DNA from: an uncultured Acidobacteriota bacterium
GTDB lineage: Bacteria > Acidobacteriota > Thermoanaerobaculia > UBA5066
Assembly (NCBI GenBank): GCA_963776915.1
Contig: CAVZPE010000004.1
Location: 513,812-577,811 of the forward strand
DNA: 64,000 bases
Reading direction: 5' to 3'
This document shows positions 14,086 through 57,520 of the stretch, one piece after another. Numbering within the stretch: position 1 is the stretch's first letter; every line of letters begins with the position of its first letter. The notes beneath the pieces were generated by a model that saw only the letters and a program-made list of their open reading frames with translations, did not search any database and was not told where the DNA came from. The translations under genes and the position numbers were made by a program.

Positions 14086-14285
14086 TTTCGAATTGTACCG
14101 GAGGAAGAGATGAATATTTCTGCTTAAGAGGGGAGAACGAGGGATGCAGTCGCGGCCGGCCGGAGCAAGGGCGCGTCGGAGCGCCGCTTCGCGGGCGAAG
14201 ACCGCTTGACAGCGGCCGGACCGCGCTCAGCTTTCCGGCCTATCGGCGGCTGCATTCGCAGCCGTCGCATCTAAGAGAAAAATCC
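14086..14285. repeat. Mosaic palindromic repeat, copy A (type-2 arms), between divergent purA and hutH
   Basis: The arms are AATATTTCTGCTTAAGAGGGG (14113) and CGCATCTAAGAGAAAAATCC (14266), in inverted orientation. The interior GC-rich hairpins include CGGCGGCTGC-ATTC-GCAGCCGTCG. About 190 nt align by eye with copy D at 37170-37360. Confidence 0.75.
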
Positions 14286-14308
14286 CCAGCTCCATTACCC
14301 GGTGCACA

Positions 14309-15841
14309 ATGCTCGCTCGTGCGATCAGACCATTCATTCTCGACGGGGACTCTCTTTCACTCGAAGATCTCTCCCGCGTCGCCTCCGGCGACGCGTCGGC
14401 GGCGCTCGCGCCGCGCGCCGCCGGGCGCGTGGACGCCGCGCGGGCCGTCATCGACCGGGCCGTCGCGGAGGACCGGGTCGTCTACGGGGTGACGACGGGC
14501 TTCGGCAGGTTCGCCGACGTCGTGATCCCCCGCGAGAAGCTCGGCGAGCTCCAGCTCAACCTCGTGCGGAGCCATGCGGCGGGGACGGGCGCCGCGCTCG
14601 GCGCGCCCGCCGTCCGCGCGGTGATGCTCCTGCGCGCGAACTGCCTCGCGAAGGGGTTCTCGGGAATCCGGCGCTCGACGCTCGAGCTCCTCCTCGCGTG
14701 CCTCGAGGCGGGCGTCCACCCGATCGTGCCGGAGCAGGGCTCCGTCGGCGCGTCGGGCGATCTGGCCCCGCTCGCGCACCTGGCGCTCGCGCTCGTCGGG
14801 GAAGGCGAGGCCGAATTCCGCGGCCGGCGCATGCCGTCCGCCGACGCGCTGCGGGAGGCGGGTCTTTCGCCCGCGGTTCTCGAGGCGAAGGAAGGCCTCG
14901 CCCTCATCAACGGGACCCAGCTCACGACGGCCCTCGGCGCCCTCGCGCTCGCGCGCCTTCTCGACCTCCTCAAGGCGGCGGACCTCGTCGGCGCCCTCAC
15001 GCTCGACGTCCTCAAGGGCACGGACGCGGCCTTCGACCCGCGCATCCACGCGGCGCGGCCGCATCCGGGCCAGATCGCGTCGGCCGCGAACCTCCGCGCG
15101 CTCCTCGCGGGGTCGCCCCTGCGCGAGAGCCACCGCCACTGCGGCGTCGTGCAGGACGCCTACACGCTGCGCTGCATGCCGCAGGTGCACGGGGCCGCGC
15201 GGGACGCGGCCGCGCACGCACGCCGCGTGATCGAGATCGAGATGAACGCCGCGACGGACAACCCGATGGTCTTCGCCGAAACGGGCGAGCTCGTCTCCGG
15301 CGGCAACTTCCACGCCGCGTCCGGTCGCCCTCGTCTGCGACCTCCTGGCGGCGGCGGTGGCCGACCTCGCGTCGATCTCCGAGCGGCGCGTCGAGCGGCT
15401 CGTGAACCCGTCGCTCTCGGGCGACCTGCCGGCGTTCCTCGTGAGGGACGGCGGCCTGAACTCGGGTCTCATGATGATTCACGTGACGGCGGCGGCGCTC
15501 GTGTCGGAGGCGAAGGCGAACGCGTTCCCGGCGTCCGTGGACTCGATCCCGACGTCCGCGGGCAAGGAGGACCACGTCTCGATGGGGCCGATCGCGGCGC
15601 GCAAGCTCGCGCGGAACGTCGACCTCTACGAGACCGTCCTCGCGATCGAGCTCCTCGCGGCCGGCCAGGCGCTGGACCTGAGGCGCCCGCTCGTCTCGTC
15701 GCCGCCCGCTCGAGGACCTGCACCGGCGTCCTGCGCGCGCGCGTGCCGTTCTGGGAACGCGACCGCGAGGCGGCGCCGGCGATCGAGGGGGCGCGGGCCG
15801 CTCTCGGCGGCCTCGGAGCGCTCCTCGCGACGCTCGGCTGA
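14309..15841 (+). pseudogene. hutH: Histidine ammonia-lyase, about 3 frame changes as assembled
   Basis: ORF 14309 is HAL-like up to GGNFHA (it carries the [17 protein letters not shown] motif). ORF 15357 continues the protein ([35 protein letters not shown]). The tail [16 protein letters not shown] returns to the first frame. The changes lie near 15319, 15706 and 15728. Confidence 0.85.
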
Positions 15842-18285: not shown

Positions 18286-19448
18286 CGGACACGGCACCGC
18301 GCACGCCTCGCGCCCGCCGGAGCGGCGCCGGAGGGCGCGTCGTGACGTTCCCGAAGGCCGGCGCGGCCCCGGCGCGGCGGCCGAAGGTCGTCGTGACGGG
18401 CGGAGCGGGCTTCTTCGGGGCCCGGCTCGTCCGGTCCCTCCTCCTGCGCGGGGAGCACGAGGTCGTCGTCTTCGACCTCGTCCCGCCCGCCGAGATGCCG
18501 GTCGACGTCCGCCACCGCTTCCTGGACCTGAACCTGCCGTTCGCGGACGGGACGCTCTACAAGCTCCTCCTCGAGGAGAAGCCCGACGTCATCGTCCACC
18601 TCGCCCAGCTCCGCAGCCCGTCGCACCAGGCGACGTACGCCCACGAGCTGAACTCGATCGGCGCGCTCCACGTCTTCGCGGCGGCCGGCGAGGCGAAGGT
18701 GCCGCGCGTGATCCTCGGGTCGACGTCGCTCGTCTACGGCGCCCGGGGCGACAACCCGAACTTCCTGACCGAGGAGCACCCGCTCCGGCCCGACCCCCAG
18801 GACCGGTTCGTGAAGGACTTCGTCGAGGCCGAGACGCACGCGCGCGAGCACGTCCGGCGGCATCCCGAGACCGGCCGTGCAGATCCTCCGCTTCGTGCCG
18901 CTCCTCTCGCCCGAGGTCCGCGACTACCGGACGAAGCTGTTCGCGTCGCCCGTCTCGTGGACGCTCATGGGCTACGACCCGCTCGTCCAGGCGCTCCACC
19001 CCGACGACGCGGTCCAGGCTCTCCTTCACGCGCTCGACCGCCCCGAGGTCCGCGGCGTCTTCAACGTCGCCCCCGAGGGGATCCTCCCGCTCTCGACCGT
19101 GCGTCTCTTCTTCGGCTCGCTCGGCATCCCGGTGCCGCACGGCGCTCGCGTACGCGCTCTACGAGGCCGCCTGGCTCGCCGGCATCGGCGTCATGCCGGG
19201 CGTCCACGCGCACTATCTCCGCTATCTCTGCGTCGTCTCGAACGACAAGGCGCGGGACGTCCTCGGCTTCGCGCCGCGGCGCACGACGCTGGACTGCGTC
19301 CTCGAGACCGCCCGCGCCCGGTTCGGGAACGGCCGACTCGTCGACTTCGACGTCCTCGCCGACGCCGCCAGGGCCGCCGACTTCGCCTACGAGCGCCGCG
19401 TGCATCCCAGGCGAGTCGCATCGCCCGCAAGTCAGGGCGGCGTCGTGA
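18282..19448 (+). pseudogene. NAD-dependent epimerase/dehydratase family protein, about 3 frame changes
   Basis: The Rossmann motif is VVVTGGAGFFGARL in ORF 18282. The protein continues in ORF 18877 (QILRFVPLLSPEV..FNVAPEG) and ORF 19193 (HAHYLRYLCVVSNDKARDVLGF). The stop at 19446-19448 is back in the first frame and forms a GTGA overlap with the next start. Confidence 0.65.
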
Positions 19449-20455: not shown

Positions 20456-21732
20456 TCAGCGGCCGCGGGCGGCCGTCATGCGGTCGAGGTCGGCTTCCAG
20501 CGTCGCGAGCGACGCGGCGAGGCGCGTCGTCGGGAGCGCGTCGGCGGTCCGCTCGTGGTGGCTCTTCACGCGGGAGCGGTCGCGCGCGCAGGCCGGCCTC
20601 AGGACGAGGCCGTGGCGTGCGAAGACCTTCTGCAGCCGCTTGAAGTCCGCGTCGAGCGTCGCCATCGTCGAGCGGTACGCGTACTCGGCGATGCGGATGC
20701 GCCCGACGTGCGCATGATGTTGCGCATGTAGCGCGGGAAGGTCCTCCGGGCGCGGCTCGAAGACGACGACGTCGGCCGCGGGGGCCTCGCGGCGGTAGCG
20801 CCCGAGCCCGTACTTGAGCCGCGAGTGAAGCGTGACGCGGAAGACCTGGTCGAGGATCGTCGGGAGGCCGCGGCGCCGAAGAGAGCCCGTCGCCGTGCCC
20901 GTTCGCGTCGCGCCGGGTGGAAGCGGACGGGCACGAGCGGGTTCACGCAGACCGTGAGGCCGCAGCGCTCGCGGATCGCGAGGGAGATGTGGGCCGTCTT
21001 CTTGACGCCGCCGTCGATGTAGTCGACGCCGTTGATCTGCACGGGGCGGTAGAGGCCGGGGATCGCGCACGACGCCGCGACCGCCTGCGAGATCGGGACG
21101 TCCTCGTGGCCGGCGCACCCGAACGCGGCCGTGTTGCCCGAGTCCAGGTCGACCGCGACGATCCGGAGCGTCCTGCCGAGCTTGCGGAAGTCGTTCGTGC
21201 GCCCGTCCTTCGTGAGCCAGTCGCGCATCCACGCCTCGAGCCCCTCGTTGTGGAAGATGCCCGAAGGCAGGAGCTGGCCGAGGGCCTGGACGAGGTCGGT
21301 GAGCGTCGTCTCGTGGCGGTTCTTGTAGTAGTCCCACGCGGCGTCCATGACCGTGAACGGCGCCTTCGCGAGGCGGCTCGCGATCTCCTCGAAGTTCACG
21401 CGGAAGAGGGCGAGATCGTCGATGTCGGTCCGCGCTTCCGCCGAGCGCGTCGCGTTGCGGAAGAGGAGCGCGGGCGTCACGCCGTTCGCGAGGAGCGCCG
21501 AGATGTAGGCCCCCGCCGAGACGCCGACGAACACGTCGAAGTCCGTGAGCGAGGCGTTCTCGAGGCGGTCCTCGAGGGCCGCGAGCGCGCCGATCTCGTA
21601 GACGGCGCCCGTGACGCCACCGCCCGCGCAGACGAGCCCGAGCTTCTTCGTGATCGGAGCGGGGAAGGGACGGAAGCGCTCGCCCGACGCATGGTCGGGC
21701 GGCAACCCGGGTCTCTCGCGGTGGATGCTCAT
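20456..21732 (-). pseudogene. Patatin-like phospholipase, about 3 frame changes
   Basis: ORF 20599-21732 carries GLVCAGGGVTGAVYEIG (oxyanion GGG), GVSAGA (GxSxG) and the catalytic-Asp region YIDGG. The C-terminus continues in the ORF 20456 frame (GLPTILDQVFRVTLHSRLKYGL...) with a short excursion (RYMRNIMR). Confidence 0.75.
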
Positions 21733-21736
21733 GGCT

Positions 21737-21774
21737 CAAAAACGAAACGGGGCGCCGTTTGGATGGGCGCCCCG
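21737..21774 (-). terminator. Rho-independent terminator after the phasin gene
   Basis: On the minus strand the stem is CGGGGCGCC / GGCGCCCCG (9 bp) with a 9-nt loop, followed by TTTCGTTTTTG. Confidence 0.7.
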
Positions 21775-21800
21775 AGTGTATCCGATCCGGTTCCGGCCGA

Positions 21801-22295: not shown

Positions 22296-22988
22296 CGGCT
22301 TTTCCTCCTGCCTTTGGCGGACGCGGAGGCGCGGCCGGGCTTGGCCGCGGCGCGCTCGCGCGCTGGTTTCCGGGAACGACTTCTTGGCGAGCGATTCCAG
22401 CTGGGCGAGGCGCGTCTTGATCTGGGCGACGTCCCGGGCGAGCTCAGGCTGGCCGCCGAGACGGCTGCCGAGGTCCCGGACGCTGCCCGTGAGGTCCGCG
22501 AGGCTCTCGCGGAAGACGAGTCCGACGTCGTCGCGCAGCCGGGCGCCCTCCTCCCACGTCACGCGGCCCTTCTCGACGAGCCCCCCGACGATCTTCTCGA
22601 TGTCCTGGCGGGCGTCCTCGATCTTCCGGGTCAGGGGAGCGAGCGTCTGGCCGAGGTTCTCCGGGCGGGCGGCCTTGCGCAGGCTCTCGGCGACGCCGGT
22701 CGCCCCGACGCGCTCGGCGGCGCCGGCGACGGTCTCGGCGGCCTCGCTGCCGGCCCTCAGGATCCGCGCGAGCGTGTCCGCGGACGCGGTCACGGGCGAC
22801 TTGCCCGACGCGAGGGCGCGGGAGAGGACCCGGGCGGTGATGTCCTCGCCCGTGTCGGCTGCGATGACCTCCAGGCGGACCCCGGTCGAGACGGCGCGGG
22901 CGAGGTCTTCGAGCGTCACGAAACGGCGTTCCTTGGCCTCGTAGAGCTTCCGGTTCCGGTAGCGGACGATTCGTCTCACGTCGCTCAT
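22292..22988 (-). pseudogene. phaR: PHA synthesis repressor PhaR, one frame change near 22375
   Basis: The N-terminus [30 protein letters not shown] is the PHB_acc_N DNA-binding motif. The tail [27 protein letters not shown] is in another frame and ends in the ATGA overlap. The 395-aa ORF in the track is a read-through fusion. Confidence 0.75.
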
Positions 22989-23077
22989 GGACGTGAAGAT
23001 AACGCGTCGCGTAATGTCTTGTCAAGGGGAAATTGTGCAACGCGTCATTCCGCGGCCCGCGGGCTAACATCCCGGCC

Positions 23078-24763
23078 ATGTCCGCACCCGCCGCCGCCCC
23101 TCCCTACGCACCTCCGGACCTGCCGAAGGGCACCGCAGAAGTCCTGCCGGTCGTGGCTCACGGAGGCCCCTTACCGCATGCTGCTCAACAACCTCGACCC
23201 GGAGGTGGCCGAGCGCCGGGAGGACCTCGTCGTCTACGGCGGCTCGGGAAAGGCGGCGCGGAACCCGGAGTGCCTCGAGGCGATCCTCCGGGAGCTCCGG
23301 CGCCTCGGGGACGACGAGACCCTCCTCGTCCAGTCCGGCAAGCCGGTCGGAGTGTTCCGGACGCACGCGGACGCTCCGCGCGTCCTCATCGCGAACTCGA
23401 ATCTGGTGCCGAAATGGGGCACATGGGACGAATTCCGTCGGCTCGAGGCGCTCGGCCTGACGATGTACGGGCAGATGACCGCGGGGTCGTGGATCTACAT
23501 CGGCACGCAGGGGATCCTCCAGGGGACGTACGAGACGTTCGCGGAGGCCGCGCGGCGGGACCTCGGGTCGGCGGACGGCTCGCTCGCCGGCCGCCTCGCC
23601 GTCACGGCCGGCCTCGGCGGGAATGGGCGGCGCCCAGCCTCTGGCGGTCACGATGTGCGGGGGCACGGCCCTCGTCGCCGAGGTCGATCCGGCCCGGATC
23701 GACAAGCGCCTCGCGACGCGTTACCTCGACCTCAGGCTCGACGGGCTCGACGCGGCGATCGACCGGGCCCTCGCGGCCCGGGACGCGAAGGAGGCCGTCT
23801 CGATCGGCGTCCGCGCTAACGCGGTGGATCTCCTCGAGCGGCTCCTCGCGCGCGGGATCGTCCCGGACGTCCTCACGGACCAGACCTCCGCCCACGACGA
23901 GCTGAACGGTTACGTCCCGCACGGACTCCCGTACGAGGAGGCGCTGAAGCTGAGGACCGCCGATCCCGAGGCCTACCGCGGCCGCGCGATCGCCTCGATG
24001 GGCGCGCACGTGAGGGCGATGCTCGCGCTCAAGCGGCGCGGCGCCGTGACCTTCGACTACGGCAACAACCTCCGCGCGGGCGCGGTCCAGGCCGGCGTCG
24101 CGGACGCCTTCGAGATCGTCGGATTCGTCCCGCTCTACATCCGGCCGCTCTTCTGCGAGGGCAAGGGCCCGTTCCGCTGGGCCGCGCTCTCCGGAGACCC
24201 TGCCGACATCGCCGCGACCGACCGGGCGATCCTCGACCTCTTCCCGGAGAACGCCGCGCTCCGCCGCTGGATCACCCTCGCCGGGCAGCGCGTCGCGTTC
24301 CAGGGGTTGCCGGCGCGGATCTGCTGGCTCGGCTACGGCGAGCGCGCGAAGGCCGGCCTGGCCTTCAACGAGCTCGTCAGGACCGGGCGCGTGAAGGCTC
24401 CGATCGTGATCGGGCGCGACCACCTCGACTGCGGGTCGGTCGCCTCGCCGAACCGCGAGACGGAGGCGATGCGGGACGGGAGCGACGCGATCGCGGACTG
24501 GCCGCTCCTGAACGCAATGTTGAACACGGCCGCGGGCGCGACGTGGGTCTCGATCCACCATGGCGGAGGAGTCGGGATCGGCTACTCGCTGCACGCGGGC
24601 ATGGTCGTCGTCGCGGACGGCACGGACGCGGCCGCCGTGCGGCTCGCAGCGCGTCCTCACGACGGACCCCGGGACGGGCGTGATCCGCCACGCGGACGCG
24701 GGGTATCCCGAGGCCATCGCCTGCGCCGAGAGGAACGGCATCCCCGTCCCGATGCGCCGTTGA
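23078..24763 (+). pseudogene. hutU: Urocanate hydratase, about 3 frame changes
   Basis: The pieces are MSAPAAAPP.. (ORF 23033), [47 protein letters not shown] (ORF 21759), [38 protein letters not shown] (ORF 23623) and [34 protein letters not shown] (ORF 24560). GGGAATGGG at about 23625 looks like a 1-nt insertion in GLGGMGGAQP. Confidence 0.85.
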
Positions 24764-35987: not shown

Positions 35988-36168
35988 CCGAAGAGCGACG
36001 AAGGAAGAAGAAAGAAGATTCTCTTAGAAGGTGAAGAGGGGCGTGGCTGAGTCGGGCGCCCCGCGTTTCGTGTTCGGCCTGCACGGCCCCGCGCTGGATG
36101 CGGAGGAGAGGGCCTTTTTTTCGGCGCATCCGCCTCTCGGCTTCCTCCTGTTCAAGAGAAATCTTCAA
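35988..36168. repeat. Repeat copy C: polypurine arm plus forward core (35988-36042), with the partner reverse core at 36143-36168
   Basis: The left arm is CCGAAGAGCGACGAAGGAAGAAGAAAGAAGATTCTCTTAGAAGGTGAAGAGGGG and contains the nagZ GTG start. The partner TTCAAGAGAAATCTTCAATCGCCC matches copy B (reverse complement TTCGAAGAAAATCTTCAATCGCCC). Native NagZ N-terminal codons lie between the two cores. Confidence 0.65.
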
Positions 36169-37149
36169 TCGCCCTCACAAGTCGTGTCGCTGATCGAGGA
36201 GCTGCGAGGGCTCGGGGGGGCGGGAGCGGCGCCCGCCTCCGCGGGCGCCGCTCCCGCCCCGCTCCTCTTCGTGGACCAGGAGGGCGGGACCGTGGACCGC
36301 ATCGGCCCGCTCCTCGGCGTTCCGTTCGCGTCGGCCGCGGCCTGCGCGGAGGCCGGGACGGACCGCGTGCACGAGAACGCGTACCTCATGGGCCGGGCCG
36401 CGCGCCTCCTGGGATTCGACGTGGACTTCGCGCCCTGCCTCGACCTCGGGCAGCCCGGCGCGGGCGCGGTCGTCCTCGAGGGCCGGTGCTTCGGCTTCCA
36501 CGCCGAGGACGTCGTGATCGGCGGGATGGTCTTTCTCCACGGCCTCGCGCGCGCGGGCCTCGCGACCTGCGTCAAGCACTTCCCGGGTCTCGGGCGCGGC
36601 GCGGTGGACTCGCACGCGAAGCTGCCCGTCGTGGACGCGCACGACGTCGACCTCATGGTCACGGACGTCGCGCCCTTCGCGAAGCTCGGCCGCGGGGCCG
36701 ACGGGGTCATGGTCGGCCACGCGGCGTACCCCGGCTTCGAGAACGGAGCGATCGTGCCGGCGTCGCTCTCGCCGCGGATCCACGGAATCCTGCGCGGACC
36801 CGTCCGCTTCGAGGGCGTCGTCTACTCGGACGACCTCGAGATGAACGCTCTCGAGGGGACGCTGCCCGAGCGCGCCGAGCGCGCCGCGGCCGCCGGCTGC
36901 GACGTCGTGATCCTCTCGAGGACGTTCGAGGCCTACGCCGAGGCGGTCGCCCGCGTGGACGCCCTCGGCCCCGATGCCGCCCGCGCCGGGCGTCTCGACG
37001 CCCTCCGCCGCCGCGTCGCGGGCGCCCCGCGCCCGCGGTTCACCGAGGAGGCCTGGGCGAAGCTCGCGGAAGAGGCGGCAGCGTTCGGGGAGTTGATGTC
37101 GAAGCCGAGAGAGAAGAGAAGAGACGAAGACTTCGGAAGATTTTCTTAG
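36031..37149 (+). CDS. nagZ: Beta-N-acetylhexosaminidase (GH3, NagZ-like)
   Basis: This is an intact 372-aa ORF. LDAEERAFFSAHPPLGFLLFKRN, DQEGGTV and KHFPGLG are GH3 N-terminal domain motifs. The last 16 codons and the TAG stop lie in repeat D. Confidence 0.85.
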   Translation: MKRGVAESGAPRFVFGLHGPALDAEERAFFSAHPPLGFLLFKRNLQSPSQVVSLIEELRGLGGAGAAPASAGAAPAPLLFVDQEGGTVDRIGPLLGVPFASAAACAEAGTDRVHENAYLMGRAARLLGFDVDFAPCLDLGQPGAGAVVLEGRCFGFHAEDVVIGGMVFLHGLARAGLATCVKHFPGLGRGAVDSHAKLPVVDAHDVDLMVTDVAPFAKLGRGADGVMVGHAAYPGFENGAIVPASLSPRIHGILRGPVRFEGVVYSDDLEMNALEGTLPERAERAAAAGCDVVILSRTFEAYAEAVARVDALGPDAARAGRLDALRRRVAGAPRPRFTEEAWAKLAEEAAAFGELMSKPREKRRDEDFGRFS

Positions 37150-51689: not shown

Positions 51690-51862
51690 CTTTCGGATTT
51701 CGGATTTCGGATTTCTTAGAAGGGTGAGTGGGGCTGCGGCTCGACCGCCGGCGCGGCGGTCACTCGGCCGCCTCGATCCCTCTTCACCTTCTAAGCAATC
51801 CTCGGGTCCTCGCTTTCCCTCTTCCTCCCCTCATTCGAAGAAATTCTCCTTTCCGATATCCT
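51690..51862. repeat. Repeat copy F upstream of valS, preceded by a 7-nt tandem repeat (ATTTCGG x3-4)
   Basis: The tandem tract is CTTTCGG ATTTCGG ATTTCGG ATTTCTT. The forward core is TTAGAAGGGTGAGTGGGG, followed by a hairpin loop (GACCGCC-GGCGC-GGCGGTC). The reverse core is CCCTCTTCACCTTCTAAG, followed by a polypyrimidine run and CTCATTCGAAGAAATTCTC. Confidence 0.8.
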
Positions 51863-51871
51863 CGGCAGCCT

Positions 51872-54532
51872 GTGAAGGAGCTCGAGAAGACCTTCGACCC
51901 GTCCACCTTCGAGATGCGCTGGTACAAGGCGCAGGAGGAGGCCGGTGTCTTCCGTCCCGAGTCCGCCGGCCGGGACGCCGAGCCGTTCACGATCGTGATC
52001 CCGCCGCCGAACGTCACGGGGCGGCTGCACGTCGGTCACGCGCTCGGGCGGACGCTCGAGGACGTCCTGTGCCGCTGGCGCCGCATGCAGGGGCGCGCCG
52101 TCCTCTGGGTCCCCGGCGTCGACCACGCCGGCATCGCGACGCAGATGGTCGTCGAGCGCGACCTGAGGGAACGGACGGGCCAGTCGCGCCACGACCTCGG
52201 CCGCGACGCGTTCGTCGCGCTCTGCCGCGAGTGGGCGGACGCGCGCCGCGGAGACATCCTCGACCAGATCCGGCGGCTCGGCTGCTCGTGCGACTTCACC
52301 CGCGAGTACTACACGCTCGACGCGATCCGCTCGCGCGCCGTCCGCTTCGCGTTCACGACGCTCTACGAGCAGGGCCTCGCCTATCGCGCCGAGCGGCTCG
52401 TGAACTGGTGCCCGAGCTGCGCGACCGTCCTCTCCGACCTCGAGGTGAACCACGTCGAGACGTCCGGGCACCTGTGGTCGATCGCGTACCCCGTGGTGGG
52501 CGGCGGGGAGGTCGTCGTCGCGACGACGCGGCCCGAGACGATGCTCGGCGACACCGCGGTCGCCGTGCACCCCGACGACGAGCGCTACGCCGGCGCTCGT
52601 CGGCAAGCGCGTGACGCTTCCGCTGACGGGCCGGACCATCCCGGTGATCGCCGATTCCTTCGTGGAGAGGGAGTTCGGGACGGGGATCGTCAAGGTGACG
52701 CCCGCGCACGATCCGAACGACTTCGAGGCGGGCAGGCGCCACGGGCTCGACCTCGTGACCGTCATCGGGTTCGACGGCCGGATGACGCCGGCCGCCGGCG
52801 CCGCGTACGCGGGCCTCGAACGCGCCGAGGCGCGCAAGAAGGTCCTGCGGGACCTCGAGGCGCAGGGCCTGCGCCGGGGCGAGAAGAGCCACCTCGTGCC
52901 GCTCGCGCGCTGCCAGAGGTGCGACACGATCGTCGAGCCGCTCGTCTCGATCCAGTGGTTCGTGAAGATCGGCCCTCTCGCCGCCAAGGCGGTCGAGGCG
53001 ACGGAGAGGCGGGAGACGACCTTCACGCCCGAGCTCTGGAAGAAGACCTACGACGAGTGGATGCGGAACATCCGCGACTGGTGCATCTCGCGCCAGCTCT
53101 GGTGGGGACACGAGATCCCGGCCTGGTACTGCCCGGACGGCCACGTGAACGTCCCGAAGCCGGGCGCGGACGACCCCACGGCGTGCGCGACGTGCGGCTC
53201 GGCCGCCCTCGTGCGCGACCCGGACGTGTTCGACACGTGGTTCTCGTCGTGGCTCATGCCGCTCTCCGTGTTCGGCTGGCCCGCGAAGACGGCGGACTTC
53301 GAGCGCTTCTATCCGACGAGCGTTCTCGTGACGGGCTTCGACATCCTCTTCTTCTGGGTGGCCCGGATGATCATGGCCGGCACCTGGTTCGACGGGCGGG
53401 CGCCCTTCCGGGACGTGGTCCTGCACGGCCTCGTGCGCGACGAGAAGGGCCAGAAGATGTCGAAGACGAAGGGCAACGTCGTCGACCCGCTCGAGATGTG
53501 CGACGAGTTCGGGGCGGACGCCGTGCGGTTCACGCTCGCCGTCCTGTCCGGCACGGGCCGCGACCTCCCGTTCGGCAAGTCGCGCGTCGCGGGTTACCGC
53601 GGCTTCGCGACGAAGGTCTGGAACGCCGCGCGCTTCGCGCTGCCCCTGATCTCGGAAGGAGCGTGCGTGGACGCGCTCGAGTTCCGTTCCCTCTCCACGG
53701 TCGACCGCTGGATCCTCGCGCGGTTCTCGGACGCCGCGAGCCGCGTGGGCGCGTCCCTCGAGGCCTGCCGCTTCGACGAGGCGGCGCACGCGCTCTACCA
53801 GTTCTTCTGGTCCGAGTTCTGCGACGGCTACGTCGAGATGATCAAGCCGGTCCTCCGCGGCGCCGACGTGCCGGAGGCCGAGAAGGCGCGGACGCGCGGC
53901 GTCCTCAAGCGGGTGCTCCTCGACTCGCTCGCGCTCCTGCATCCGTTCATGCCGTTCGTGTCCTGCGAGATCCGCGAGGCGCTGAACGGGGACGGCCTCG
54001 GCCTCGCGACGGCGAAGTTCCCCGAGCCGGACCCCGACTGGAAGGACGACGCGGCGGTGAGGTGGTCGAGACTCCTGCGGGCGATCGTGACGCGAGTCCG
54101 GAACCTGCGCGCCGAGCACGGCCTCGCGCAGACCGAGGCGCTCGCGGTCGGCCTCGAGCTCCCGCAGGACCCCTTTCAGAGGGAAATGCGGCGTCACGTC
54201 CCGCTCCTGAGCCATCTCGCGCGGCTCAGCGCCGTGGAGATTTCTTCGAGGTGGAATTGGCCCGGAGCGCATCGCGACGTCGTCGCGGAGATCGGGATCG
54301 TCGTCGAATTGCCTTCGAAGAGAGATTTCTTCCGAAGACAGGGAGAAGCTGCGAGCGCGACGTGGAGCGCCTGCGCGCCGAGGCGGCGAAGATCAGAGCG
54401 CGGCTGGCCGACCAGAGCTTCCTCGCGCGCGCTCCCGCACCCGTTGTCGCGAAGACGAAGCAGCAGCTCGAAGAAATCTCCGAACGGATCGCGCGGCTCT
54501 CCGGCAACCTCGTGGGGACTCCGGACCGGTGA
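51872..54532 (+). pseudogene. valS: Valyl-tRNA synthetase, two or more frame changes (about 52590 and about 54340)
   Basis: The GTG at 51872 gives MKELEKTFDPSTFEMRWY. The sequence carries PPPNVTGRLHVGHAL (HIGH motif), TRPETMLGDTAVAVHPDD, then ORF 52611 (GTGIVKVTPAHDPNDF..KMSKTKGN, the KMSKS motif). The coiled-coil tail returns to the first frame. Confidence 0.9.
54237..54340. repeat. Inverted core pair G inside the valS C-terminal region (a further core lies at 54466-54480)
   Basis: GAGATTTCTTCGAGGTGGAATTGG lies at 54237. GAATTGCCTTCGAAGAGAGATTTCTTCCGAAGA lies at 54305. They flank native-looking codons (PGAHRDVVAEIGIVV). The second valS frame change lies at the right core. Confidence 0.6.
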
Positions 54533-55354: not shown

Positions 55355-56155
55355 ATGGAGGCCCCGGAGCTCGACGAGTCCACGTACGCGACGAGAGTCG
55401 AGGACGCCTTCATCGCCGAGCGCGGCACGCCCTTCCTCCTCTCGCCGAAGGACTGGACGCTCATCCGCGGCTGGCGCGAGGGCGGGATCCCGGTGGACAC
55501 CGTGGTCCGGGCCGTGCGGGAGGCGTTCGAGAAGCGGCGCGCGCGCGGCCAGGCCGGCAAGATCTCGTCCATCGCGTACTGCGCGAACGCCGTCGAGGAG
55601 CTCTGGGAGATGGAGCGCCGGGGCCTCGTGGGCAAGGCCCACGAGGCCCCCCCGGCGGGCGCGAACGCGCCCGCGAGAGGAGAGAAGTCTCTTGCTTTGC
55701 TCTCGGATCGTCTGCGCGCGATGAGCGACGCTCTCGCGACCATGGACGGCGCTGAAGATCTTCTTAGAAGGGTGAGTGGGGCCGGGGCGGCGGGCAGCGC
55801 CGGTGCGGCTCCTCGAGCGGAGGGCGCCCCAAACACCTTCGAAGAAATCCCCCTCTTCTCGTCCCTCCGAAAGTCGCTGAGCTCCGCCGCCTCGAAGATC
55901 GAGGCGCTGCCGCGCGATCTTTCATTCGAAGAATCCGAAGAGAAGCTCTCCGTGATCGAGGCGTCGCTCGTGAAGTCGGCCCTCCGCGTCCTGCCGTCCG
56001 AGCAGCAGGCTCTCGTCGAATCCCGCGTGTCCTCCGCCCTCGGCGACGTCGCCGGCGTGTCGCCCGCGGTCGTCGAGCGGATGCGCCGGGCGCTCACGCG
56101 CCGCGAGGTGCGCCTGCTCCTCGGCCTGCCGGCCCTCACGCTCCTCCATGGCTGA
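55355..56155 (+). CDS. Hypothetical protein with a conserved N-terminal domain; the C-terminal half carries repeat H
   Basis: This is an intact 266-aa ORF. The N-terminus AFIAERGTPFLLSPKDWTLIRGWREGGIPVDTVVRAV looks like a conserved uncharacterised family that I cannot name. Confidence 0.55.
   Translation: MEAPELDESTYATRVEDAFIAERGTPFLLSPKDWTLIRGWREGGIPVDTVVRAVREAFEKRRARGQAGKISSIAYCANAVEELWEMERRGLVGKAHEAPPAGANAPARGEKSLALLSDRLRAMSDALATMDGAEDLLRRVSGAGAAGSAGAAPRAEGAPNTFEEIPLFSSLRKSLSSAASKIEALPRDLSFEESEEKLSVIEASLVKSALRVLPSEQQALVESRVSSALGDVAGVSPAVVERMRRALTRREVRLLLGLPALTLLHG
55754..55860. repeat. Palindromic repeat, copy H, in-frame inside the 55355 gene (an extra core lies at 55919-55940)
   Basis: The forward core is GAAGATCTTCTTAGAAGGGTGAGTGGGG, and its last 22 nt are identical to copy F. 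A GC loop follows. The reverse core is CACCTTCGAAGAAATCCCCCTCTTCTC. The translation is EDLLRRVSGAGAAGSAGAAPRAEGAPNTFEEIPLFS. Confidence 0.8.
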
Positions 56156-57520
56156 GGTCCGCCCGGGCGACGCCCTCGAGGCTCTCGTCGAGCGCGTCGT
56201 GCCCGGGGGCGAGGGGCTCGCGCGAACGGAGGGCGTCGTGACGCTCGTGGCGGGCGGCCTGCCGGGGGACCGCGTCCGGCTGCGGGTGGAGGACGCGTCT
56301 CCCCGCCTCATCCGGGGTCGCGCGGAGGAGATTCTCGAGGCGGGCGAGGCGCGCCGCCCGGACGCCGACGTCTGCGGCCTCGCGCGGAGCGGCGCCTGCG
56401 GCGGCTGCGACTGGCCCGCTGCGCGGCCGGAGCACCATCGCGCGCTCAAGACCGAGCTCGTCCTCGACGCGCTGCGGCGGCTCGGCGGCCTCACCGCGGC
56501 CGACCTGCCCGAGCCGCGCTGGCTGGGTTCCCCGCCGAACTACCGCCTCCGCAACCGGCTGCACCTCGACCGCGAGGGGCGCCTCGGCTTCTTCGCGCCC
56601 CGCTCGAAGGCGGTCGCGGACCTCGAGGGCTGCCAGATCGTGTCGAAGCCCTTCCTGGAGCGGCTCCCGGCGCTCCGGGACCACCTTCGCTCGATGGGGC
56701 CGATGGAAGGGGAGCTCTTGACCCTGGAGTCGCGCGACGGGAAGACCCTGCTCGGCGAGTTGCGGCTCTCGGCGGGTGACGGTCTGCAAATTTCTTCGAA
56801 GGTGAAAGAGAGAGGGAGAGGGCCGTTCGACGGGTTTCGCGTCGTCGATGCGGGTGGGCGGCTGCTCGCCTCGGACGGTCCCTCGTCGCTTTCCATCGAG
56901 GCAGGCGGCGCCTCGTTCGACGTGCCGGTGTCTTCCTTCTTTCAAGGAAATCTCTTTCTCCTCGATTCGTTCCTCGAGGAGATCCGGACGGCGCTTCGCG
57001 CCGGAAGAGAAGAGAAGATTTTCCTAGAAGGGAAGAGGGGGGAGGCGCGCGCTTGCGCGCCGTGGATCTCTATGCGGGCGTCGGGTTCATGACGCGCCCT
57101 CTCCTGGAGCTCGCGGCCGAGATGGGAGGCGGCGAGGTGACGGCCGTCGAGATCGACCCGGCGTCGTCCCATTCACTTTCAAAGAATCTTCAGGCCTGGC
57201 AGAAGGAGGGCCTGCCCCTCGCGCGCTCGATCCGAGCCTCCGCTGAATCCTTCTTCCACTCGAAGAAATCCGAATCTTCGGTCTCTCTTCTCCTCGCGGA
57301 CCCTCCGCGCGCCGGCCTGTCGCCCGAGGTGCGGAAGGGGCTCCTGCGGCTCGCGCCGCCGCGCGTCCTGATGGTGTCCTGCGACCCGCCGACGCTCGCC
57401 CGCGACCTCGCGGCGCTGAAGGAGCGCTACGCGGTGACGCGCCTGACGCTCCTCGACCTCTTCCCGCAGACCCACCACGTCGAGACGGTGGCCTTGCTCG
57501 CCGCGCGTCCGATCGGATAG
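56148..57520 (+). pseudogene. 23S rRNA (uracil-5-)-methyltransferase RlmD/RumA-like (TRAM, Fe-S Cys cluster, SAM MTase), one frame change near 57040
   Basis: ORF 56148 carries CGLARSGACGGCDW and SSFFQGN. ORF 57053 carries VDLYAGVGFM, LLADPPRAGL, MVSCDPPTLARDL and DLFPQTHHVETV. The join falls in repeat I-3 at a G6 run. Confidence 0.8.
56788..57293. repeat. Cluster I: five core copies inside the rlmD-like gene
   Basis: The five cores are AAATTTCTTCGAAGGTGAAAGAGAGAGGGAGAGGG (56788), CTTCTTTCAAGGAAATCTC (56936), GAAGAGAAGAGAAGATTTTCCTAGAAGGGAAGAGGGGGG plus the GGCGCGC-GCTT-GCGCGCC hairpin (57004-57060), CTTTCAAAGAATCTTCAG (57175) and CCACTCGAAGAAATCCGAATCTTCGGTCTCTCTTCTCC (57256). Confidence 0.7.

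Follow-up and report, generated by a model that had tools for sequence, protein, structure and literature searches.

Copies of a genus-specific motif in the reading frame of an rlmD-family gene from an uncultured Acidobacteriota bacterium

The coding sequence of bacteria is usually taken to consist of a protein code and a codon bias. The locus described here raises the question of whether a further sequence-specific layer can be written into a conserved enzyme. It lies in a 64,000-nucleotide stretch of contig CAVZPE010000004.1 (assembly GCA_963776915.1, an uncultured Acidobacteriota bacterium of the Thermoanaerobaculia), referred to below as the window, and is a gene of the RlmD/RumA family of 23S rRNA m5U methyltransferases (56148..57520, forward strand; rlmD hereafter). 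The window is 72% GC, and five AT-rich patches lie within the gene. An earlier reading of this DNA, the original prediction, described the patches as five copies of a repeat core that recurs across the window, and all five are present where it placed them. On balance, the five patches are probably old copies of a genus-specific nucleic-acid signal that sit in the frame of rlmD and whose bases are kept beyond what the protein code requires.

Motif copies within the rlmD frame

The cores differ in orientation and in what they encode. Core 1 is a forward arm (56787..56822) in which the core itself, ATTTCTTCGAAGG, occupies 56790-56802 and is followed by a purine tract; it encodes LQISSKVKERGRG. 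Core 2 is a reverse arm on the opposite strand (56931..56963; CTTTCAAGGAAAT at 56939-56951, with pyrimidine flanks) that encodes SSFFQGNLFLL and lies over the FFQ.N motif. Core 3 is a forward arm at 57019..57045 (TTTTCCTAGAAGG plus GAAGAGGGGGGAGG, core at 57019-57031) in the linker between the central domain and S-adenosylmethionine (SAM) motif I. Its outer flank is the purine tract GGAAGAGAAGAGAAGA (57003..57018), where the frame is lost, and a G6 run at 57037..57042 reads in frame as GAG GGG GGA, or E-G-G. A GC hairpin, GGCGCGCGCTTGCGCGCC, spans 57044..57061 just 5' of VDLYAGVG. Cores 4 and 5 are reverse arms: the former (57170..57193, core CTTTCAAAGAATC at 57176-57188) encodes HSLSKNLQ, and the latter (57246..57295, core CACTCGAAGAAAT at 57257-57269, then a pyrimidine tract) encodes ESFFHSKKSESSVSLLL just before the DPPR motif IV. 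A position weight matrix (PWM) trained on 345 copies, all outside open reading frames (ORFs) and outside the window, gives cores 1 to 5 scores of 35.7, 24.0, 30.1, 17.5, and 23.2 bits; a threshold of 10 bits is reached by 0.97% of random 60-nt windows.

In a codon-level alignment with orthologues, cores 1, 2, 4, and 5 reach at least 10 bits at the same codons in 20–21 of 22 congeners (20 each for cores 1 and 5), and in none of six sister-lineage and none of six other-family sequences outside the genus. Core 3 reaches this score in only 5 of the 22. The copy over FFQ.N was said to use rare codons, and it does. The window gene spells FFQGN as TTC-TTT-CAA-GGA-AAT, in which TTT, CAA, GGA, and AAT account for 4.8%, 5.8%, 11%, and 7.8% of their synonymous sets in the genome, and each of the four is kept in 16–21 of the 22 congeners. 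Likewise, ATT and TCT of core 1 are common to 86–95% of the orthologues, and core 4 has CTT in 100% and AAT in 91% of them.

Codon bias alone yields a synonymous codon identity of 0.61, and this measure of conservation was discarded in favour of a test of A/T third positions and a recoding test scored with the PWM. A or T occupies a fraction of 0.50 of the third positions in core columns, as compared with 0.15 elsewhere. Within the cores, 23 of 43 columns have mostly A or T at this position, and outside them 20 of 384 do (Fisher p=5e-15). The window's own A/T-ending codons are common to 60–100% of orthologues when inside the cores, whereas outside them the figure is only 0–23%. Because this arrangement is kept in nearly all congeners against a strong bias towards GC at third positions (GC3), the bases appear to be under selection or subject to a continuing sequence-specific drive. 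Two A/T-ending codons outside the named cores, GAA at 56706-56711 (MEGEL) and GGA at 57515-57517 (the last codons), are also common to 82–91% of orthologues; they may be partial motif matches or translation-end effects. A pause in translation at rare codons was considered as an explanation of the patches and rejected, since the sites fit a matrix built from non-coding copies, and do so in both orientations.

In the recoding test, the same peptides were recoded by genomic codon usage, and the frequency with which the observed motif score was reached was recorded. The resulting P values are <5e-5 for core 1, <5e-5 for core 2, 2.5e-4 for core 4, and 0.009 for core 5; six other segments of the same gene, used as controls, give P values of 0.45–0.95. 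Core 1 scores 35.7 of the 37.2 bits that its peptide permits, and core 2 scores 24.0 of 28.6. Over FFQGN, mismatches to the core fall only at bases fixed by F, Q, and G, and every free base matches. Across the rlmD cores, all bases that the peptide does not fix agree with the motif, and the mismatches are confined to positions needed for F, Q, G, or N.

A sister lineage that is free of the repeat (RlmD 49–55% identical) bears on how the patches arose. Where core 2 lies, it has SSFFQ(A/G)NRFLLD at the same length, written TCC-TCG-TTC-TTC-CAG-GCG-AAC-CGC-TTC-CTC-CTC-GAC, and its codons over FFQ(A/G)N are TTC-CAG-GCG/GGG-AAC-CGC, without an indel. The codon alignment also places SSFFQANRFLLD in this lineage, in common codons and at equal length. 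At the core 4 site, it has ADLVANLAAW in GC-ending codons, the length again being unchanged. Since the repeat-free sisters show no length change, cores 2 and 4 are overprints on native sequence. As the alignments have it, these two cores arose by the rewriting of native codons and not by insertion, and at cores 1 and 5 native segments gave way to sequence about two codons longer, the core 5 region being 2–7 codons longer than the sister and outgroup sequences. The view of the cores as insertions, which the original prediction had taken, does not hold in general. Identical nucleotides are not found at these sites in repeat-free relatives, which use TTC-CAG-GCG/GGC-AAC; the finding that, according to the original prediction, would have refuted it was thus not made.

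The copy at 57004-57060 was singled out in that earlier reading as a true insertion, and here the outcome is divided. The core 3 arm is indeed extra: it is missing from eight congeners, from the sister lineage, and from the outgroups. The GC hairpin that was counted as part of the insertion consists mostly of native codons (ARLRA); the pattern R-x-R-A-(V/L)-D is found in this region in orthologues without core 3 as well. The linker from FLEEIR to DLYAG is 69 nt long in those eight congeners and 81–138 nt in the others, and the sister lineage has 81 nt here; its length is always a multiple of three, with 0–69 nt extra among congeners. No target duplication is visible when filled and empty core 3 sites are compared. 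The gene tree, which is poorly resolved, indicates about four changes of state at this site, including at least one loss placed within filled lineages, and congeners without core 3 still have core 4. By these comparisons, core 3 is the only one of the five that is extra sequence, and it lies in an indel-prone linker. The family of repeats would thus overprint codons that were already there, some of them catalytic, without inserting anything, and would be maintained as nucleotide sequence.

A motif family of one genus

Across the window, the core reads about ATTTCTTMGAAGG and is flanked by purine-rich sequence. At up to three mismatches it has 27 matches in the window, as compared with 4.1 expected from shuffles. 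The genome to which the window belongs (4.49 Mb, 34 contigs, 71% GC) holds 545 copies of the 13-mer at no more than one mismatch and three of a reversed control. All 25 congeneric Thermoanaerobaculia genomes hold 138–545 copies, equally on both strands, a spread of about four-fold between congeners; the reversed control has 0–5 copies in the genomes compared. Copies number 3–24 in 16 genomes from other families of the same order and 1–6 in seven nearer relatives found via their rlmD, which together form the 23 genomes outside the genus (G025–G047, 1–24 copies). The lineage is represented by uncultured metagenome-assembled genomes (MAGs). The motif is thus genus-specific, with about 13 conserved bases, WTTTCTTMGAAGG, and purine-rich flanks on each arm. 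These counts against controls, together with the fit of the patches to a matrix from non-coding copies, bear out the claim that the patches belong to the window-wide repeat.

Most cores lie outside genes, in clusters. About a third are inside GC3-supported ORFs, and about 16% of pairs are wholly within one ORF. The cores inside ORFs occur in all six classes of frame and orientation, with 17–48 copies in each, and therefore the repeating unit is a nucleotide motif and not a peptide. It follows that the peptide NL or NLQ, whose recurrence had been pointed out before, does recur, but trivially: it is one frame of the reverse core. An example of an in-frame unit lies just upstream of rlmD, at 55759-55848, where a complete forward-reverse unit is read within ORF 55355-56155 (...LLRRVSGAGAAGSAGAAPRAEGAPNTFEEIP...); its counterpart in a close relative, G013, has an interior of another length.

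The cores are arranged in an ordered manner. In the window's genome, 284 of 337 adjacent forward-then-reverse pairs are within 300 nt of each other, with a mode of 77, but for the reverse-then-forward order the figure is 15 of 319. The DNA between the arms is rich in GC, and most units have unrelated interiors, apart from one loose cluster that includes kinases. Those of intergenic units turn over quickly, and most cores in the window are at orthologous sites in G013. Pair spacing shows no 10.5-nt periodicity that would point to helical phasing. Within a pair, the likeness of one arm to the other is at chance level except at the A/C (M) position (odds ratio 2.7, p=0.001). There is no bias between G-U and A-C mismatches on the sense strand (29 vs 32; 102 vs 123), and intergenic pairs show no bias of gene context, divergent, convergent, and tandem spacers being occupied in background proportions.

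It is from these properties that a mode of action can be tentatively proposed, although we hold it to be somewhat less than probable. The arms would act as oriented forward-then-reverse pairs, serving as DNA recognition sites for a putative lineage-specific factor. Each arm would be matched to a common consensus, independently of its partner. Such single reading is suggested because pair-specific likeness is nearly absent, there is no G-U bias, and spacer contexts are those of the background, and because core 4 persists without core 3 and the reverse-then-forward order is almost absent. The rlmD gene would then host two such pairs and one extra arm.

Searches for a known relative of the motif gave little. 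A literature search found no described repeat family of this sort in Thermoanaerobaculia, and an Rfam scan of 35000-58500 gave no fitting family, only two sub-threshold chance matches. One of these, to the ALIL pseudoknot at 36111-36255, overlaps with a reverse arm close to nagZ; its 27 bits (E=0.0016) fall short of the gathering score, 50, and it is probably a chance match. The other is to a flavivirus xrRNA. The RAYT transposase (PF01797) was not found in the window's genome or in 21 other congeners; it is present in 3 of the 25 congeners and in many core-free relatives. No inversion of rlmD segments was seen among 22 orthologues, and four orthologous units compared with G013 are all in the forward state. 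The search for a long multi-copy element bounded by the arms returned only kinase paralogues and a second-strain contig. The kinases lie outside the window: of 19 core pairs at an exact spacing of 93 nt in this genome, 18 sit in paralogous Hanks-type Ser/Thr kinases, located at C4:358299-430021 and C4:618001-629834 (C4 being the contig of the window) and on contigs C13, C15, C16, and C20. In these paralogues, the peptide of the forward arm is PEEFFEGEER and that of the reverse arm is YSFEEIP, after which comes a poly-Ser tract; an RFEREA...LNHP segment lies between the two arms.

The host gene and its frame break

The family assignment of the host gene is based on Pfam, NCBIfam, relatives in the Protein Data Bank (PDB), and orthologues. 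In the assembly the gene is split into ORF 56148-57092 (frame 0) and ORF 57053-57520 (frame 2). Its product has the Pfam domains TRAM and tRNA_U5-meth_tr; the former (PF01938, residues 5-58, E=1.4e-7) is the N-terminal TRAM that the family requires. NCBIfam rumA/PRK13168 matches each half, and the PDB relatives are 5xj1, 1uwv, and 2bh2, with the C-terminal half aligning to 5xj1 and 1uwv. The motifs checked in the catalytic domain were FFQ.N, SAM motif I (D-L-Y-x-G-x-G), DPPR, the nucleophile Cys in SCDP or SCNP, and the H-V-E base. All of them are present, as SSFFQGN, VDLYAGVG, ADPPRAG, MVSCDPPTLARD, and THHVETV. The equivalog cut-off of TIGR00479, 183.55, is not reached by the halves, which the frame break causes to be scored separately (55 and 88.9 bits), and for this reason the gene is assigned to the RlmD/RumA family without the assignment to U1939. 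As judged from its sequence, the gene is a member of this family and looks functional, with its catalytic residues intact.

The original prediction placed a slip of the reading frame at the G6 run. A second-strain copy of the gene in the same assembly, on contig C33, has an identical G6 run that is in frame as EEGGGARLRAVDLY, a similar run is in frame in the orthologue L012, and L012 and a further orthologue, L001, support the frame of the C33 copy. It is the purine tract at 57003-57018 that is one base shorter in the window than in the C33 copy and L001. Past this tract, frame 2 of the window reads EDFPRREEGGGARLRAVDLYAG, in agreement with EDFLRREEGGGRPFHALDLYAG of L012, and the C33 copy reads REDFLRREEGGGARLRAVDLYAG, which matches the window's frame 2. 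Since C33 reads the same G6 in frame and the base missing from the window is in the purine tract, the slip does not occur at the G6 run. The C33 copy (C33:26300-27800) lies on a 38-kb contig that duplicates this part of C4; its rlmD protein is about 84% identical, all cores are present in it, and it has a frame break of its own at residues ~146-150. On account of the duplicate contig, the MAG is taken to include a second related strain or species (contamination 4.5%).

Frame breaks are frequent in this assembly. In a census in which ORFs from the syntenic 68 kb of G013 were matched to the window by tblastn, at least 12 frame changes were found in the 64 kb, 10 of them in ordinary GC-rich sequence. 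The window genes concerned are at 895-1225, 14268-15787, 18312-19414, 20459-21777, 22371-24760, and 51842-54520, with two to four frames per gene. The essential valS breaks frame twice, at 52593 and at 54300-54345; the second break is on a reverse-plus-forward core (CCTTCGAAGAGAGATTTCTTCCGAAG), and past it the conserved coiled coil of the C terminus (CERDVERLRAE...) resumes in another frame. The genome is only 81.6% complete despite its 34 contigs. The many breaks in GC-rich sequence, the break in C33, and the low completeness jointly bear the mark of uncorrected indel errors, and the split of rlmD is, by this comparison of sequences, most likely a one-base assembly error in the purine tract at 57003-57018.

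That the break is real, reflecting a recent pseudogene or programmed frameshifting or slippage in the purine tract, we regard as very unlikely. Two of the 12 breaks (rlmD and valS) do fall on cores, which cover ~1.7% of the window (binomial p=0.017), and low-complexity purine tracts are able to slip in vivo. However, consensus errors too are commoner in low-complexity runs. The gene is a single open frame in 22 of 22 intact congeneric orthologues (65–86% amino-acid identity), and the second-strain copy is in frame throughout this region. Two breaks in an essential gene and 10 of 12 breaks in ordinary GC-rich sequence also tell against biological slippage, and a low completeness in few contigs, among relatives that include a long-contig MAG series, is what uncorrected indel errors would produce. 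The notion of a meaningful frame slip is weakened accordingly. Another rlmD orthologue, L024 of genome G006, is interrupted by two TGA codons in frame, and its reading frame is shifted over a stretch that spans the SAM-binding region; G006 (53% complete, 6 contigs) is probably another error-rich assembly. AT-rich patches and many frame breaks in such an assembly could mislead gene callers and pseudogene counts.

Alternative explanations and known systems

If the arms are not recognition sites, they could instead be parts of an RNA element in which a forward and a reverse arm form a long stem round 60–150 nt; such a stem might be cut by RNase III, stabilise or attenuate the mRNA, or put a brake on translation. 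Every forward arm is complementary to every reverse arm, an inverted orientation with free spacing suits a hairpin, minimum-free-energy and alifold predictions pair core 2 with either core 1 or core 3 in a manner kept in all 23 sequences, and the arms are modestly correlated at the M position. A reverse-then-forward pair would fold equally well, yet the genome has 15 of these and 284 of the other order; the remaining positions and the flanks do not covary, G-U-type mismatches are not in excess over A-C-type ones on the sense strand, divergent promoter spacers host pairs as often as other places do, core 4 survives without core 3, and no Rfam family matches. Taken together, this leaves the RNA element rather unlikely. 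We also think it unlikely that the motif spreads by a drive without cellular function, either through uptake and recombination as with the DNA uptake sequences (DUS) and uptake signal sequences (USS), or through template switching at quasipalindromes, with protein constraint filtering the sites. Molecular drive by itself is enough for uptake sequences to accumulate, and template switching corrects quasipalindromes. The motif is lineage-specific, strand-equal, present in hundreds of copies and in six frame classes, and its copies are made in place by substitutions where the protein leaves bases free; in rlmD, arms in extra sequence (cores 3 and 1) face rewritten native arms (cores 4 and 2). Uptake signals, however, do not need strictly ordered pairs, and template switching predicts a pair-specific similarity that is nearly absent and cannot hold one consensus over 22 species. 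A related proposal to which we give a low probability is that some lineage-specific system writes and maintains an oriented signal of ~13–45 nt over existing DNA, codons of catalytic motifs included, in place, for example by templated conversion or biased-uptake drive on ordered pairs of arms, and not by transposition.

Two further explanations treat the arms as ends of mobile or invertible segments. [quoted passage not shown] But cores 2 and 4 add no codons and overlie conserved motifs, and for both of them the indel-free alignment largely refutes this explanation. Moreover, the A/T third positions persist in 20–21 of 22 species while other A/T-ending codons are not shared, most window cores are orthologous in G013, and a RAYT is missing from 22 of 25 congeners, with neither an autonomous element that has such ends nor a duplication of the target to be seen. 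Relics are therefore very improbable as a general account and, on the alignments, would fit only core 3. Scarcely credible is the idea of intragenic invertons, in which an invertase flips the coding segment between arms and so switches rlmD and many other genes. It is in keeping with inverted repeats of a shared consensus around arbitrary segments that include native coding DNA (rlmD, valS, 18 kinase paralogues); yet neither rlmD segment is inverted in any of 22 species, all four units compared with G013 are forward, and flipping part of the essential valS, or a stretch that spans the SAM-binding motif, would be destructive.

The reading that we favour, namely a conserved nucleic-acid signal within the rlmD frame and, more tentatively, paired DNA recognition sites, has several points against it. 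Arms in a strict order but at free spacing are more what one expects of transposon ends or hairpins than of ordinary operator sites. The pairing of cores 1 and 2 that RNAalifold gives for each of the 23 sequences is uninformative, since both arms are invariant. No factor that might bind the arms was identified, and selection cannot here be told apart from an uptake-sequence-type drive or templated conversion. The gene tree behind the history of core 3 is poorly resolved, and the genome-wide ORF calls are crude, being stop-to-stop ORFs filtered on GC3 that make up 60% of an error-rich assembly.

Should the favoured reading be correct, a conserved enzyme would carry, genus-wide, a second sequence-specific layer in codons that make up about 5–11% of their synonymous sets. 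Should the arms prove to be binding sites or signals of a drive, they would belong to an undescribed genome-wide system with hundreds of sites in an uncultured, widespread soil lineage. In-place writing of a signal, if true, would be a new kind of bacterial genome-wide sequence drive or dual-coding signal.

Several known systems resemble the motif in part. RPEs are lineage-specific palindromic repeats that are both intergenic and in frame within housekeeping genes, where they are compatible with protein function (PMC10969869). The behaviour of core 3 is similar to theirs. However, an RPE inserts ~150 bp and contributes a conserved peptide, read in a single frame, whereas four of the five copies here add either no codons or about two and lie over native or catalytic residues. 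Only core 3 is extra (0–69 nt), a conserved peptide in one frame is absent, only the ~13-nt core and its low-complexity flanks are conserved, the interior is arbitrary, and all six frame classes are used. Repetitive extragenic palindromes (REPs), bacterial interspersed mosaic elements (BIMEs), and REPINs are alike in comprising hundreds of short repeats in inverted doublets about 70–130 nt long, mostly outside genes. The inverted doublets are found here too. In contrast to REP and REPIN, the cognate RAYT, a Y1 HUH transposase, is absent from 22 of 25 core-bearing genomes, the arm lacks a GTAG-tagged hairpin, the interiors are unrelated, and about a third of the cores are within ORFs. Of the hallmarks of MITEs, only the inverted arms are seen; a conserved interior, a target duplication, and an autonomous insertion sequence partner are not. 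Intragenic invertons share inverted repeats of common consensus around native coding DNA, but here 22 orthologues and four compared units show no inverted state, and no recombinase is linked to the pairs.

The DUS of Neisseria and the USS of Pasteurellaceae are lineage-specific motifs of 10–13 nt that occur in hundreds to thousands of copies on both strands, are often found in genes, where codon choice accommodates them, and are conserved from one related species to another. The present motif is likewise lineage-specific, over-represented on both strands, and found within genes as well; it differs in being AT-rich, in having purine tracts, and in its ordered forward-then-reverse pairs 63–200 nt apart. 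HIP1 of cyanobacteria is an 8-bp perfect palindrome that is over-represented genome-wide, accommodated in coding sequence via codon choice, and kept at orthologous positions; we know of no established function for it. Here, by comparison, an oriented 13-nt core with flanks occurs in ordered pairs. By analogy, uptake sequences and HIP1 appear closest in behaviour, as motifs accommodated in genes by codon choice, but they are without ordered pairs. If the reading given above is right, the system would be comparable in scope to uptake sequences, REP, and HIP1, but built of ordered pairs that tolerate native genes between their arms.

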